Shown here one piece after another: positions 32,547-49,405 of a DNA stretch of 64,000 nucleotides. The notes under the pieces were generated by a model. That model saw only the letters and a list, made by a program, of their open reading frames with translations, searched no databases and had not been told where the DNA came from. The position numbers and the translations under genes are program-made. The number at the start of each line of letters is the position of its first letter. Position 1 is the first letter of the stretch. The DNA lies in the sequence record NC_028894.1; one strand, written 5' to 3'. Source of the stretch: Escherichia phage vB_EcoM_VR20.

Positions 32547-32584
32547 TTTATTCTCCAGTTGTTTTCATTTGTTGGTACAGGTCT

Positions 32585-32613
32585 ATAATATCATAACCTG
32601 TACCAAAGTAAAC
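32585..32613 (-). promoter_or_regulatory. early promoter with -10 inside the palindrome GGTACAGGT...ACCTGTACC
   Basis: GTTTAC then TATTAT about 17 nt downstream; 9-bp inverted repeat around the -10. Confidence 0.5.
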
Positions 32614-32617
32614 TGTT

Positions 32618-32986
32618 TTATGCGACTTTAATCCAATTATCTAAATTTAATTCACCCTTAGCTTTCATTTTTTCAATCAAATCATCAGCAGTGGTGCGAC
32701 CATTTTGATACCATGTAACATCTTCAGAATAACCAGTTTCTTCATCTTCATAGGTCTTACAACGAATCTTACCAAGAATCAAAGTTTTCAGTTCGTAGGT
32801 ATCACCAGTAAAAAAGTTTGTTACCATAATTTTCCAGGAGAAGTCATCAGAAGGACCTTCTGGAGTCATGCAAGAAACGAATTCAAATTGTTCTTTATAC
32901 AAGTGCCATTGCATTTCTTTAGTTTCAATGGCTTTGTAGCCGTCGTGGTCTTTACCTTTGATGTATGAGTTAAGATTGATTTTCAT
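32618..32986 (-). CDS. hypothetical protein, 122 aa
   Basis: ORF preceded by the same leader as 48405..48644. Confidence 0.65.
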   Translation of the reverse strand: MKINLNSYIKGKDHDGYKAIETKEMQWHLYKEQFEFVSCMTPEGPSDDFSWKIMVTNFFTGDTYELKTLILGKIRCKTYEDEETGYSEDVTWYQNGRTTADDLIEKMKAKGELNLDNWIKVA

Positions 32987-33026
32987 TTTATTCTCCAGTG
33001 TTTTATTGTGTAACTCAGTATGGAAT

Positions 33027-33057
33027 CATTATGCACTGGACCAACCCTGTTGTAAAC
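33027..33057 (-). promoter_or_regulatory. early promoter GTTTAC-N18-CATAAT with leader CCATACTGAGTTAC
   Basis: Near-identical cassette at 48685..48715. Confidence 0.55.
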
Positions 33058-33075
33058 CTTTTATGGAAATAAAAA

Positions 33076-33096
33076 AGGGACTCCGAAGAGTCCCTG
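33076..33096 (-). terminator. terminator hairpin AGGGACTC-TTCG-GAGTCCCT plus T-run
   Basis: Directly after the 53-aa ORF stop. Confidence 0.65.
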
Positions 33097-33099
33097 AAC

Positions 33100-33261
33100 T
33101 TATGCTTTCGGCTTACCAAAGCAAGCTGCATCGGCACGCAATACCGCACGAGCACGAGCCTGAAGTTTATCAGTTACCTGATTGATTCGCTTGTTGGACG
33201 CACGCTTGTAACCAGCGCGTTTGGAGGAGCCATCAACAACTTTAACTTCTTTCTTAGCCAT
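33100..33261 (-). CDS. hypothetical small basic protein, 53 aa
   Basis: Hand-translated MAKKEVKVVDGSSKRAGYKRASNKR...; AAAGAG upstream; terminator right after the stop. Confidence 0.45.
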   Translation of the reverse strand: MAKKEVKVVDGSSKRAGYKRASNKRINQVTDKLQARARAVLRADAACFGKPKA

Positions 33262-33558
33262 ATTAAATTCTCTTTAAAATAGAATGCAGGACTTATTGAC
33301 ATTGCCTGCGCAAGCCCTCGAAGGGAACATTAGGTTTCGGATATTTAACGACAGGATAACCATAAACCTCGTCATCATACCAACCACGACTTAGACAGAT
33401 AACCTTTTTCTGACGCGTGATAGTACAAAATACATTCAAGAGGTACACCGTAAAACTGCTGGGGTCTTAAAACTATAATGATTCACAAATCATTAATCAG
33501 GCAGTTCGACAGCTCCTCGATTTTCTAGCCGCACTTAAGGTAGCGAATCACCTAAAAC

Positions 33559-33813
33559 TTACTTCAGAGTAACGACAAAATGTCGAACAGCTTTGCGAGC
33601 AGCAGATGCCAGCGGCTTAGCAAATTTCAGTTCATCTTTTGCTTCGAGCACAGCGCGAAGGTCGGTTTGTACCGGGTTAAGATGTTTGAAATACTGCAGA
33701 ATTTCCAGTGCTTCGGCTTCAACATCAATAGATGCGCCGTAGTTTTCGTGACCGTTATTCCATGCAGTGCGTTGCAGTTCAAGAGCGTGTTGTAATTGTT
33801 TGTTTAAAGACAT
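33559..33813 (-). CDS. rIII: lysis inhibition accessory protein rIII
   Basis: 84 aa from MSLNKQLQHALELQ, matching T4 rIII; GAGG upstream. Confidence 0.85.
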   Translation of the reverse strand: MSLNKQLQHALELQRTAWNNGHENYGASIDVEAEALEILQYFKHLNPVQTDLRAVLEAKDELKFAKPLASAARKAVRHFVVTLK

Positions 33814-33970
33814 TTTAGAAGCCTCAATATGAGGTGAATATTTGGTGGACACGTTCTTCTGAATTTCACTTCCTTTCGACAAGTCTCTCAGTTGTAGTCC
33901 ACCGTTTAGGATTCTCCGGGTAACTAACTGGTCCGGCAGCCAATCCATATTATTATTTATAACGCTAATT

Positions 33971-34318
33971 TTACTTATAAAGACAAGGAACAGCTTTATA
34001 ATGACAGGTCACAAATTTCTGCTTAACTTCTTTAGCCTGCTTAAGTCCCAGAGCAACCAGAGGATGTGGAACGTTTGCAATCTTGCCAACCGGAAGAGGA
34101 GTCAAATCGCCTACTTCACAGAAGCCTTCAGGAACATCTGAACCAATCGAAAATACTTCACACATCTCGGGAATTTCACCCTGATGAAGTTTTCCGATAA
34201 CGATACCTGATGCCGTAGTTTCTTCATCACCAGCTTGCTTTGGCTCAGAAACCAAAATAATATATTCACCTACTGCTTTAATTGGTAATTCCATATTTAA
34301 TCCATGTTGTTTGGTCAT
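33971..34318 (-). CDS. 31: GroES-like co-chaperonin for capsid folding
   Basis: C-terminal half nearly identical to T4 gp31; exact start uncertain. Confidence 0.9.
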
Positions 34319-47254: not shown

Positions 47255-47832
47255 TTATATACAGTCTCTGTAATATGGGTTACTTCATCTATTTTATACC
47301 AATGGGTTTCAAGCATTTCACGTTTGCTTATATCATACAGGAAGTCATTATCCAACTGTACTGTTGAGTTTACGCGATGCTTTTTATAAATTTTGGTCAT
47401 GACAATTTCATCAGCATAAGGTGCAGCGGCTTCTAACAATGATTTACCGCCAATAACACAGATATAATTTTCTGAAGAAATAAACATTTGGGCAGGAGAA
47501 TCTGGCGCGGAGATAGAAACTTTTTCACCAGAAATCAATTTCAAATAATTAGCCCACGCGATATAACCACCCGCCAACTCACCAGCCTTTGTAACTGGAT
47601 ACGGTCGCGCTGGGTCAGCCACAACGACGTGAAAGCGCCCTTTTAATGTAGACGGCAGGCTTTCAAAGGTTTTTGCTCCCATGAGCACGATAGAGTTTTT
47701 TGTGCGAGCCTTGAAGTTCTGCAGGTCCTTTTTAATATGACCCCATGGCAGACCATCGTCAAGTCCAAATGCATTTTCATCACGACCGTCAACTGTTTTA
47801 GTTGGAGCATAAGCGAATACTAATTTAATCAT
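47251..47832 (-). CDS. frd: dihydrofolate reductase
   Basis: Start MIKLVF as in T4 Frd, 193 aa; ATGA overlap with upstream ORF. Confidence 0.9.
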
Positions 47833-48056
47833 TTTTCCCACCATGTAATAGCTTCATTTGTGTCATAGAAAATGTCTTCATCTATTTTAACACCATCTTT
47901 AAAAAGTGTCACTGCTGCTTTAAATAATTCATAGTTGTTCACAGACATATCAGCTGCATCATTAAAGGCCTTTTCAAATTCACCAGCATCGGGGTCATTT
48001 AATGCAGTGAAGAGTGTCCAGCTATCACTATCATGATATTCAAATACTACAATCAT
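47829..48056 (-). CDS. hypothetical protein, 75 aa (frd.1 position)
   Basis: ORF and synteny. Confidence 0.6.
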
Positions 48057-48394
48057 TTTAATTCCTTAACTGCCTTTTTGATGGCAGTAAAATCTTTGCG
48101 AATATCAAGAACCAATTTGTAAAGATGTTTAATTGTATCTGTATCAAAATATGATACCACACAACGAGAATTGCGAATATCTTCTAATGAATACTTGCTT
48201 TCACTTGTGCCATATCCAATGATACCACTAATGCACTTGTCATTAAGCGTATATTTCTGTGGACCATCAATAATATTTTTAGGATAGATGTAAAGACTCC
48301 AATCAAATTTTTGTTCAAGCGTATTAACCTTAACTTCAAGAATCAGTTCAGGATGTGCATCATCTTTAGCAAAACAAGTGTATTCAGTAAGCAT
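48053..48394 (-). CDS. hypothetical protein, 113 aa
   Basis: Start MLTEYT after GAGGAAAATATA; upstream track residues overlap the preceding gene. Confidence 0.55.
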   Translation of the reverse strand: MLTEYTCFAKDDAHPELILEVKVNTLEQKFDWSLYIYPKNIIDGPQKYTLNDKCISGIIGYGTSESKYSLEDIRNSRCVVSYFDTDTIKHLYKLVLDIRKDFTAIKKAVKELK

Positions 48395-48404
48395 TATATT
48401 TTCC

Positions 48405-48644
48405 TCACGCTTTCTTAGCGACTTTCCAGTCAGCTTTAAATTGGTCAACGTCAGAGTGATGAATCCAGAAACCAGATGAGCTACCATCTTCATAAAGAGG
48501 ACAACCATCACACTCATCTTTCCAACCCATTGCACACAAAGTTTCTTCAGCTTTTTCTAGAGCTTCTGGATTGTTACCCTGGATTGTGAAATACCATTTG
48601 CCTTTAACTTCTGAATCTTTGATGCTCTCACGTTGTAATTTCAT
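48405..48644 (-). CDS. hypothetical protein, 79 aa
   Basis: ORF with GGAG and early promoter upstream. Confidence 0.6.
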   Translation of the reverse strand: MKLQRESIKDSEVKGKWYFTIQGNNPEALEKAEETLCAMGWKDECDGCPLYEDGSSSGFWIHHSDVDQFKADWKVAKKA

Positions 48645-48684
48645 TTTATTCTCCAGTGTTTTAGTTGTTAACTCAGTATGGGAC

Positions 48685-48715
48685 CATTATGTCATAGCCC
48701 CATTTGGTTGTACAC
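48685..48715 (-). promoter_or_regulatory. early promoter GTGTAC-N18-CATAAT with leader CCATACTGAGTTAAC
   Basis: Near-duplicate of the cassette at 33027..33057. Confidence 0.55.
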
Positions 48716-48721
48716 TACTTT

Positions 48722-48976
48722 TTAAATTTTATCAAGCCATTTTCCAAGTTTAGTCATTTCCTTGGTGGCCTTTTCCATACTTCTGAACTTAACTAATAAA
48801 GGATGAACATCCATACCCATCACCAGATTGGTTGCAAGACTATGTTCACCAACAAGCCATAATGAGTATGTTTGAACATCCAAACCATAATTTCTGTCTT
48901 TATGCAAACGCACACCCATCACTTCAAATTGCTCACTCGCCTTTTCTACTGCATCCAGGAAATCATCTTTAGTCAT
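48722..48976 (-). CDS. hypothetical protein, 84 aa
   Basis: Start MTKDD preceded by GAGGT. Confidence 0.55.
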   Translation of the reverse strand: MTKDDFLDAVEKASEQFEVMGVRLHKDRNYGLDVQTYSLWLVGEHSLATNLVMGMDVHPLLVKFRSMEKATKEMTKLGKWLDKI

Positions 48977-48977
48977 A

Positions 48978-49346
48978 TTAGACCTCAAAAGTTGCTTTAA
49001 TCAGTGCAATGACTTCTGCGGCATTTTTGTGATTGACTTGCACATGAATGGTTTGGGTATCAACATCAGGAGCATCACTATCAACTTCCAGGAAGTGACA
49101 GAATTCCCATTCAGCGAGTTCAAAGTACTCATCAGCGTCACACATACTATTCAGGATGGTACCATCTTTCATTTCAACTTTTTCAACAAAATAATCACCT
49201 TCAATATAACACATATCCAGGATTTTGAAGGAATTGCCGTGTTGTTCCATCAACTTGACCATGCACGAATTATCATCAGGACTACCAGCGATGAATTGTT
49301 TTTTAGCAGCAGGGTCTAATACGTAAAATTTACCAGTTTCCATCAT
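48978..49346 (-). CDS. hypothetical protein, 122 aa, small-protein paralog family
   Basis: Start MMETGKFY preceded by GAGGAA; homologous to the 49695..50058 gene. Confidence 0.6.
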   Translation of the reverse strand: MMETGKFYVLDPAAKKQFIAGSPDDNSCMVKLMEQHGNSFKILDMCYIEGDYFVEKVEMKDGTILNSMCDADEYFELAEWEFCHFLEVDSDAPDVDTQTIHVQVNHKNAAEVIALIKATFEV

Positions 49347-49377
49347 TTTAATTTCCTCATTTTTGTTGAGGGAACAT

Positions 49378-49405
49378 ATTATCATGTTCCCGTTGGTTTG
49401 TATAC
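49378..49405 (-). promoter_or_regulatory. early promoter with -10 GATAAT in the loop of hairpin GGGAACAT...ATGTTCCC
   Basis: 8-bp perfect inverted repeat around the -10. Confidence 0.45.

Follow-up and report, generated by a model that had tools for sequence, protein, structure and literature searches.

Hairpins across the -10 element of early promoters in coliphage VR20 probably belong to promoter-early stem-loop cassettes

Repeated intergenic cassettes that combine a strong sigma-70-like promoter with a stem-loop have been described in phages RB49 and phi1 as promoter-early stem-loops (PeSLs). They fall into five positional subclasses, contain G-T pairs within their stems and were assigned a role in modular shuffling and mini-circle formation; a lacZ assay of one PeSL stem-loop showed terminator-like activity (Arbiol et al. 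2010, PMC2839356). Comeau et al. (2014, PMC4122927) applied the concept to T4/PST and KVP40/nt-1 and included versions built on middle promoters. In the papers searched, we found no description of PeSLs in Gaprivervirus or Dhakavirus beyond a mention of PeSL-like sequences near g43 of JS98. Here we analyzed a 64,000-nucleotide stretch of Escherichia phage vB_EcoM_VR20 (NC_028894.1), referred to below as the window, in which several early promoters carry an inverted repeat around the -10 element. These sites are very probably PeSL-type intergenic cassettes of a T4-like phage.

In megablast searches, positions 32000-40000 of the window were 90-97% identical to VR26, P896, SP18, VR7 and similar T4-like coliphages. 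VR26 is classified in Straboviridae, Tevenvirinae, Gaprivervirus, and judged by this similarity the window is a VR26-like T4-like coliphage of Gaprivervirus. Gene names were transferred from the VR26 annotation by tblastn. The early and middle genes form an unbroken minus-strand block (25884-53302) with the order Alt.-3, alt, gp30, 30.1-30.9, rIII, gp31, cd, pseT, alc, followed by rnlA, denA, nrdB, nrdA, td, frd, frd.1-3, gp32, gp59, gp33, dsbA and rnh. All of the palindromes that had been pointed out in a first-pass annotation of this DNA sit in short intergenic gaps of the block and are therefore to be read on the minus strand. Plus-strand promoter candidates, such as TTTTCA-16-TATAAT at 32562-32589, were rejected, since no plus-strand gene follows them. 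Unless stated otherwise, every promoter, hairpin, cassette and open reading frame (ORF) below lies on the minus strand.

The first-pass annotation had described perfect repeats of 6-9 base pairs (bp) at four early promoters. All four repeats are present, at positions that differ by 1-5 nucleotides (nt) from those given and with stems of 7-11 bp; the span drawn around them ended at 49405 and thus excluded the fourth site. Two further sites, at nrdA and frd.1, had been missed. Site 1 (cassette 32547..32617) lies between the stop codon of 30.8 and the ATG of 30.7 (32546). Its promoter, TTTACT-16-TATTAT at 32585-32612, belongs to the minus-strand reading GTTTAC-TTTGGTACAGGTTATGA-TATTAT-AGACCTGTACC, and the hairpin (32572-32606) pairs TTGGTACAGGT with ACCTGTACCAA over 11 bp around a 13-nt loop that holds the -10 element (z -4.45 for the sense strand against dinucleotide shuffles, as for the other sites). 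Site 2 (39105..39169) lies upstream of an ORF similar to VR7 gp239 (ATG 39104), with the promoter TGTACA-17-TATAAT at 39141-39169 and an 8-bp hairpin at 39134-39157 (TGGGAGCA/TGCTCCCA, 8-nt loop gagtataa, z -3.49). The nrdA cassette (45770..45835) is located between the nrdA.1 stop codon and the nrdA ATG (45769). Its 9-bp hairpin (45790-45819, GGGGTCATG/CATGACCCC, z -4.43) holds the -10 element TAGTAT (45802-45807) in the loop, and a weak -35 or MotA-box-like CGCTCCA is found upstream.

The other three sites are clustered near gp32. The frd.1 cassette (48645..48721) precedes frd.1 (ATG 48644) and contains the promoter TGTACA-17-CATAAT (48686-48714); its hairpin (48678-48703, ATGGGGCTAT/ATGGTCCCAT) has 10 pairs, eight Watson-Crick and two G.U, and folds on the sense strand only (z -2.5, compared with +0.3 on the antisense strand). 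Site 3 (49347..49404) lies between frd.3 (stop TAG 49405-49407) and frd.2 (ATG 49346). The promoter is TATACA-17-TAATAT at 49376-49404, and the hairpin (49370-49391) pairs GGGAACAT with ATGTTCCC over 8 bp around a 6-nt loop (z -3.77). Site 4 (49633..49694) lies between an extra ORF (49695-50051) and frd.3 (ATG 49632), with the promoter TTTACA-18-TATTAT at 49662-49691 and a hairpin at 49657-49682 of 7 perfect bp, or 10 pairs with one G.U (z -3.86).

The promoters at these sites read GTTTAC or TGTACA, a 16-18-nt spacer and TAnnnT, followed by a Shine-Dalgarno (SD) sequence and an ATG. In the broader form TnTACn or TATACA, with the same spacing and -10, the pattern holds at six of six sites, the nrdA site having only the weak -35 or MotA-like box. 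An A-rich stretch before the promoter and an SD with ATG within 30-45 nt after it are found in five of the six. A generic sigma-70 scan of the window was uninformative by itself (58 hits, compared with 51.6 in shuffles), so promoters were chosen by their intergenic position, their SD/ATG context and their conservation. The scan recovered the promoters of sites 1, 2, 4 and frd.1 as well as hairpin-less ones, and the site 3 promoter, which the sigma-70 tool did not list, came from our own scans. Five of the six cassettes are 58-77 nt long, and the gap upstream of the gp239-like ORF measures 169 nt. That gap, between pseT.2 and the gp239-like ORF, may contain a small hydrophobic ORF (39170-39283) of about 35-37 amino acids (aa) (..MIETCSLGWDIVRFGAFCFCFGIAATLCVQGLFGK), which VR26 leaves unannotated. 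An SD-like AAGAGGAA precedes an internal ATG, and the ORF ends in a TAG directly next to the -35 of site 2.

These cassettes share many features with the PeSLs of RB49 and phi1. Both occupy the interval between a stop codon and the next ATG and contain an AT-rich stretch and a sigma-70-type early promoter. In both, the stems have a G-rich 5' side and a C-rich 3' side, the spacer holds the 5' arm, and the loop holds the -10. The 3' arm of the form ..CCCAT(C/A).., the G.U (G-T) stem pairs and the several positional subclasses are also common to both. In each case the cassettes are concentrated among small, non-essential ORFs of unknown function (hyperplastic regions) and are tied to indels and rearrangements between close relatives. 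When the phi1 cassettes were read directly, several had exactly the geometry seen here, such as TTGACA..GGGGATAT-agcata-ATATCCCCATC (stem GGGGATAT-agcata-ATATCCCC) and GGGAGTA-gtaaga-TACTCCC (in a longer reading, GGGAGTA-gtaaga-TACTCCCATC). RB49 and phi1 are Krischvirus phages with a near-perfect TTGACA, whereas the Gaprivervirus promoters have the T4-style GTTTAC/TGTACA, and the stems here are less rich in poly-G and poly-C. Experiments on attenuation or termination of upstream transcription, on strong early transcription and on mini-circles formed by recombination between cassettes are reported for RB49/phi1 only (PMC2839356); the VR20 cassettes were analyzed at the level of sequence. With T4/PST and KVP40/nt-1 the cassettes share the concept, the modular-shuffling role and the T4-type promoter TTTACW-N17-TAYWAT, and the nrdA site with its MotA-box-like element resembles the middle-promoter version (PmSL) of Comeau et al. 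However, the stem-loops in those phages are described as standing just upstream of the promoter (PMC4122927), while a large share of those here span the -10 or the -35.

The inverted repeats at the -10 boxes do exist and are highly non-random. For the chance test, 18 early/middle promoters were curated in the window, and the -10 of each was kept fixed while the other 40 positions were shuffled. Five of the 18 had a perfect repeat of 7 bp or more spanning the -10, compared with 0.32 expected (Poisson P = 2e-5), and the count rises to six if the G.U-containing frd.1 stem is included. The window holds 769 -10-like hexamers (matches to TATAAT in at least five of six positions); outside these promoters, only about 0.9% of them sit between the arms of a perfect repeat of 7 bp or longer. 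All six hairpins folded far better than dinucleotide shuffles (z -2.5 to -4.5), with predicted free energies of -11.9 to -18.2 kcal/mol. Since the hexamer survey, the promoter shuffles and the fold scores agree, chance could be ruled out. The first-pass annotation was right to see a recurrence beyond the plain promoter consensus, and its frequency is not that of chance around AT-rich -10 regions.

The hairpin and the promoter overlap as follows. The 5' arm is placed in the spacer between -35 and -10, upstream of the start site, with the -10 itself in the loop or in the inner part of the 3' arm. The discriminator and the region of the start site (..TCCC/ACC..) form that 3' arm, whose end lies 10-18 nt past the first -10 base, at about -1 to +6 relative to start sites placed at the usual distance of 6-8 nt after the -10. 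The SD and ATG follow 20-45 nt further downstream, outside the fold. The stretch after the -10, nnTCCcAT(C/A)AACTAC.. or ..ATACTGAGTTAC.., is also conserved in hairpin-less promoters; the hairpin-specific part is thus the spacer, complementary to the -10 and the discriminator. The cassette begins at the stop codon of the upstream gene, often with ..agTAG right before the -35.

This arrangement bears on the suggestion in the first-pass annotation of an RNA hairpin at the 5' end of the transcripts. A hairpin on the RNA started at the same promoter might stabilize that RNA or regulate its translation. Nothing but proximity speaks for it; at site 1, the 3' arm does run about 5-6 nt into the predicted transcript. 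However, with the 5' arm upstream of the start site, the 3' arm ending so close to it and the SD and ATG outside the fold, such a role is all but excluded by geometry. Because the promoter's own transcript lacks the 5' arm, the hairpin would be possible only in RNA reading through from the upstream gene.

What is preserved at these sites is the pairing rather than the sequence. Among sites and relatives the stems include GGTACAGGT, GGGAGCA, GGGAACAT, GGTCTAT(GAT), GGCTATGGTA, GGGGTCATG and ATGGGGCT, and also ATGGGGCTAT, GATAGGACTA, ACAGGGTAATGGT, CAGTATGGGAGC, GATAGGGTTA and GGGATAAT. One geometry with differing stems recurred in about 13 families from the window, VR26 and IMG/VR relatives. 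The IMG/VR relatives were retrieved with single proteins, 30.7 and gp32, which gave 13 loci each, mostly close relatives, so that the number of independent comparisons is limited. An ungapped alignment of 12 promoters whose hairpins have a common center showed standard pairs in 84% of cells, compared with 39-47% when the partners were slid by 1-3 columns. Changes on both sides occurred in four of ten pairs, and the observed covariation score was reached by 0 of 500 shuffles. The non-Watson-Crick standard pairs of the core were 12 G.U cells on the sense strand, and two unpaired core cells apparently came from one sequence whose stem starts further out. Individual sites gave the same picture. 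At frd.3 (site 4), one stem pair is A-U in the window and, through a double change, G-C in the relative L015, and GGTCTAT/ATAGACC is replaced by GGCTAT/ATAGCC through a compensated indel among orthologues. A C-to-T change in relatives of site 2 yields a G.U pair on the sense strand, and the site 1 stem is the same in 13 relatives whose flanking sequence diverges on either side.

The differing stems, the double changes, the G.U bias and the sense-only fold of frd.1 point to a single-stranded fold and not to a pair of duplex half-sites. The first-pass annotation had proposed the latter, a palindrome bound by a regulator; a dimeric DNA-binding protein of the phage or host would then occlude the -10 and shut off early promoters. 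A repressor could hardly be better placed than over the -10, one class has an invariant GG...CC, and Arbiol et al. speculated on a stem-loop-binding protein (PMC2839356). However, the sites share no common half-site, pairing is kept by double changes instead of sequence conservation, most of the stem imperfections are G.U pairs of a single strand, and at frd.1 there is no duplex palindrome at all. The spacing of the arms varies from 3 to 15 nt (4-14 nt among the 12 hairpins spanning the -10 in the survey below), and only about a third of early promoters have such a hairpin. Operators are therefore a very improbable explanation.

We surveyed hairpin classes across about 35 early promoters, from the early block of the window and from positions 1-73 kb of VR26. 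About 30 of them have an associated hairpin. Twelve have the hairpin across the -10, and eight have it across or overlapping the -35. The four strongest of the latter have the form GGGG-tgtaca(ag)-CCCC, with the -35 inside the loop. Nine have a separate hairpin just upstream of the promoter, one has a spacer hairpin, and five have none. A T-run, defined as five or more T among the 8 nt that follow the stem, is present at seven of the nine upstream hairpins and at three of the eight -35-class hairpins; six of the nine upstream hairpins have a UUCG tetraloop. Gaps of about 115 nt in the window contain a terminator and a promoter separately, and the hairpin-bearing gaps of 58-77 nt have the overlapped form. 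Two gaps in this shorter range, those of Alt.-3 and gp232, lack a strong hairpin.

We favor the reading that the hairpin functions in read-through RNA, although only with slightly more than even confidence, and several observations weigh against it. The T-run count after -10-spanning hairpins was 0 of 12, and a terminator scan of the sense strand flagged none of them as terminator-like, which indicates that they are not canonical intrinsic terminators. They resemble the intrinsic terminators of T4-like phages as GC-rich hairpins just after a stop codon, but differ in lacking the T-run, in their larger AT-rich loops (4-14 nt) and in failing the scan; at the equivalent position of other promoters in this genome, terminators with a UUCG tetraloop and T-run are found. 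The sole published terminator assay concerns phi1 PeSL211/210, a hairpin of the spacer class (TTGACA-GGGGATCggtGATCCCC-T-TATAAT), and not one spanning the -10 (PMC2839356). Orthologous promoters in the relatives L017, L018 and L020 have no hairpin, implying that it is dispensable at individual sites. The strand evidence is also mixed. The sense strand was significantly favored only among strong folders, which were better on the sense strand in 27 cases and on the antisense strand in 7 (699 and 513 for random 46-mers); over all 98 candidate promoter regions the difference in fold energy was not significant (P = 0.45). When spurious AT-rich hairpins were included, G.U exceeded A.C mismatches by 28:12; the corresponding P is 0.017 if 50% is expected and 0.08 if the 58% sense share of random sequence is taken as the baseline. 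The sequences are related, so the pairing and mismatch counts are not independent, and strand-biased C-to-T mutation pressure could contribute to the G.U bias. For these reasons we take the bias as only suggestive of a sense-strand, single-stranded fold.

The cassettes are also dispersed repeats. The 77-nt frd.1 cassette was found at 256 places in 47 phage records, almost all unannotated, with typically 5-10 copies per genome among the related phage records listed. The gene order in the window is gp32-ORFx-frd.3-frd.2-gp254-frd.1, compared with gp32-frd.2-gp254-frd.3-frd.1 in VR26, and every breakpoint (50044, 49703, 49411-49358 and 48708-48654) falls in a cassette. In addition, nrdA.2 of VR26 is missing between nrdA.1 and nrdA, with the junction inside the promoter spacer of the nrdA cassette. 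The extra ORF between gp32 and frd.3 (49695-50051, about 118 aa), which is not in VR26, is about 70% identical in JS98-like relatives.

These observations raise a role at the DNA level, in which a hairpin or cruciform signal, or plain homology, would target recombination, cassette exchange and mini-circle formation, the RNA fold being incidental. It would fit the location of every breakpoint in the gp32-frd region and of the nrdA.2 indel, and the dispersal of the cassettes. PeSL mini-circles and crossover within the loop were shown in RB49 (PMC2839356), and the phage encodes endonuclease VII and SbcCD-like gp46/47. However, arms of 7-12 bp with loops of 4-15 nt are generally short for cruciform extrusion, a sense-strand G.U bias would be unexpected for a duplex or two-strand DNA signal, and breakpoints would be expected in intergenic homology with or without a hairpin. 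We consider this explanation unlikely as the main one; it and an RNA function are not mutually exclusive.

Repetition and exchange might also have produced the hairpins without any function, as a by-product of quasi-palindrome templated mutation and gene conversion among cassettes around the AT-rich and partly self-complementary extended -10 (aTGnTAnnAT). The extended -10 consensus alone supplies two inner pairs, and the hairpin-less orthologues would be explained. Templated correction, however, predicts perfect Watson-Crick palindromes, not stems that tolerate G.U with a strand bias. Many independent stem sequences end at one point, the start site, and the site 1 stem is invariant between diverging flanks. 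Moreover, the compact gaps have the hairpin where the longer ones have a separate terminator. A by-product of this kind is thus improbable.

Taken together, PeSL-type cassettes with a function in read-through RNA seem a likely explanation for these sites. Each cassette packs several elements into one short gap between small early genes, namely an AT-rich upstream region, a promoter of the sigma-70 early type with a 17 +/- 1 nt spacer and often a TGn before the -10, a conserved start region ..TCCcAT(C/A)AAC.. and an SD. With a spacer complementary to the -10 and discriminator, the sense strand could fold into a hairpin of 8-12 pairs from about -25 to +1. This hairpin would form in RNA reading through from the upstream gene, the sole transcript with both arms, and may mark the 3' end of the upstream message as an attenuator, a pause site, a terminator or an exonuclease block. 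The next transcript would start just after it, and overlapping the hairpin with the next promoter would save space. As repeats, the cassettes might double as homology patches for the shuffling of small-gene modules.

A more specific possibility, which we put forward tentatively and regard as doubtful, is that the hairpins spanning the -10 are a functionally distinct class, acting as RNA punctuation marks rather than terminators. The idea comes from their lack of a U-tract, their end at the downstream start site and the apparent sense-strand selection. Read-through polymerase might be paused or dislodged just past the promoter, which would relieve promoter occlusion. Alternatively or additionally, the hairpins might block 3' exonucleases after cleavage in the downstream leader, so that the stability of each small early message could be set independently. 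Either way, transcript ends would be defined without intrinsic termination.

An analogy with a different kind of hairpin promoter was rejected on geometry. The virion RNA polymerase of phage N4 recognizes a hairpin itself, with a 5-7 bp stem and a 3-nt loop. Both systems have a promoter with a hairpin, but here the promoter is an ordinary duplex sigma-70 promoter with the hairpin overlaid, and the resemblance is one of wording only. Rfam 15 gave 0 matches at the gathering threshold over the whole window.

Other elements of the window belong to sister classes. In the hairpin AAGGGG-tgtacaag-CCCCTT at 40702-40721, the loop contains the -35 hexamer; the hairpin is followed by T-rich sequence and is terminator-like, and its promoter at 40687-40715 (element 40687..40721) lies upstream of the second alc-like ORF. 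Terminators of the upstream class, with a UUCG tetraloop and T-run, are found on the minus strand at 33076-33095 (element 33028..33095), directly upstream of the gene 30.8 promoter at 33028-33056, and at 50144-50165 (element 50097..50165), after gp32 and directly upstream of the promoter at 50097-50125. The site 3 hairpin (49370-49391) is itself terminator-like on the antisense (plus) strand, with the tail GTTGGTTTGT, and could also stop antisense transcription. A 9-bp terminator stem, AAAGGGACC/GGTCCCTTT, occurs three times (14129-14150, 25861-25882 and 9436-9458), twice with a cgaa loop (UUCG on the minus strand), which indicates that terminators are themselves repeated modules. The promoter-to-ATG stretch as a whole also behaves as a repeated module. 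Many early promoters, with or without a hairpin, have one of two alternative leaders after the -10, either ..gattccATCAACTACTGAtgAGGA.. or ..ccATACTGAGTTAC(a/c)aa..aaaacACTGGAGAATAAAATG, with examples at 32987-33056, 48645-48714, 50052-50125, 40656-40715 and 9747-9812 on the minus strand.

Several further observations were made in the window. At alc there are two neighboring ORFs, one at 39905-40408 and one at 40422-40655, which share 47-50% identity with each other along part of their length, and both alc-like ORFs are annotated in VR26 as inhibitor of host transcription. Middle promoters of the MotA-box type (..TGCTT/CGCTT.., about 12 nt, TATAAT) occur at 13543-13570, 18574-18602 and 36973-37001. 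All three share the post--10 sequence TATAATGG(T/G)TCTAG(A/G)(C/T)CC, a near-palindrome around TCTAGA. Upstream of gp32 (51140-51160, minus strand), the interval separating a MotA-box-like ACGCTTCA from the -10 TATAAT contains CTTCAA-tcact-TTGAAG, a 6-bp inverted repeat that may be a middle-promoter counterpart of the spacer-class hairpin. The 297-nt gap between 30.9 and rIII (33262-33558, minus strand) has a strong fold (-69 kcal/mol), with no convincing ORF and no Rfam match, and could be a non-coding RNA or a decayed gene.

In summary, a regularity in the sequence would be explained as a known device, and PeSLs would be extended to the VR26- and JS98-like coliphages, where they are uncatalogued. 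The modest new point is the subclass that spans the -10 without a U-tract, which sets it apart from its sister classes in this genome; for this reason, the published evidence on termination does not automatically extend to it. The cassettes would mark the boundaries of early transcription units and are likely recombination joints of small-gene modules, and recognizing them may be of use in the annotation and engineering of therapeutic T4-like phages.

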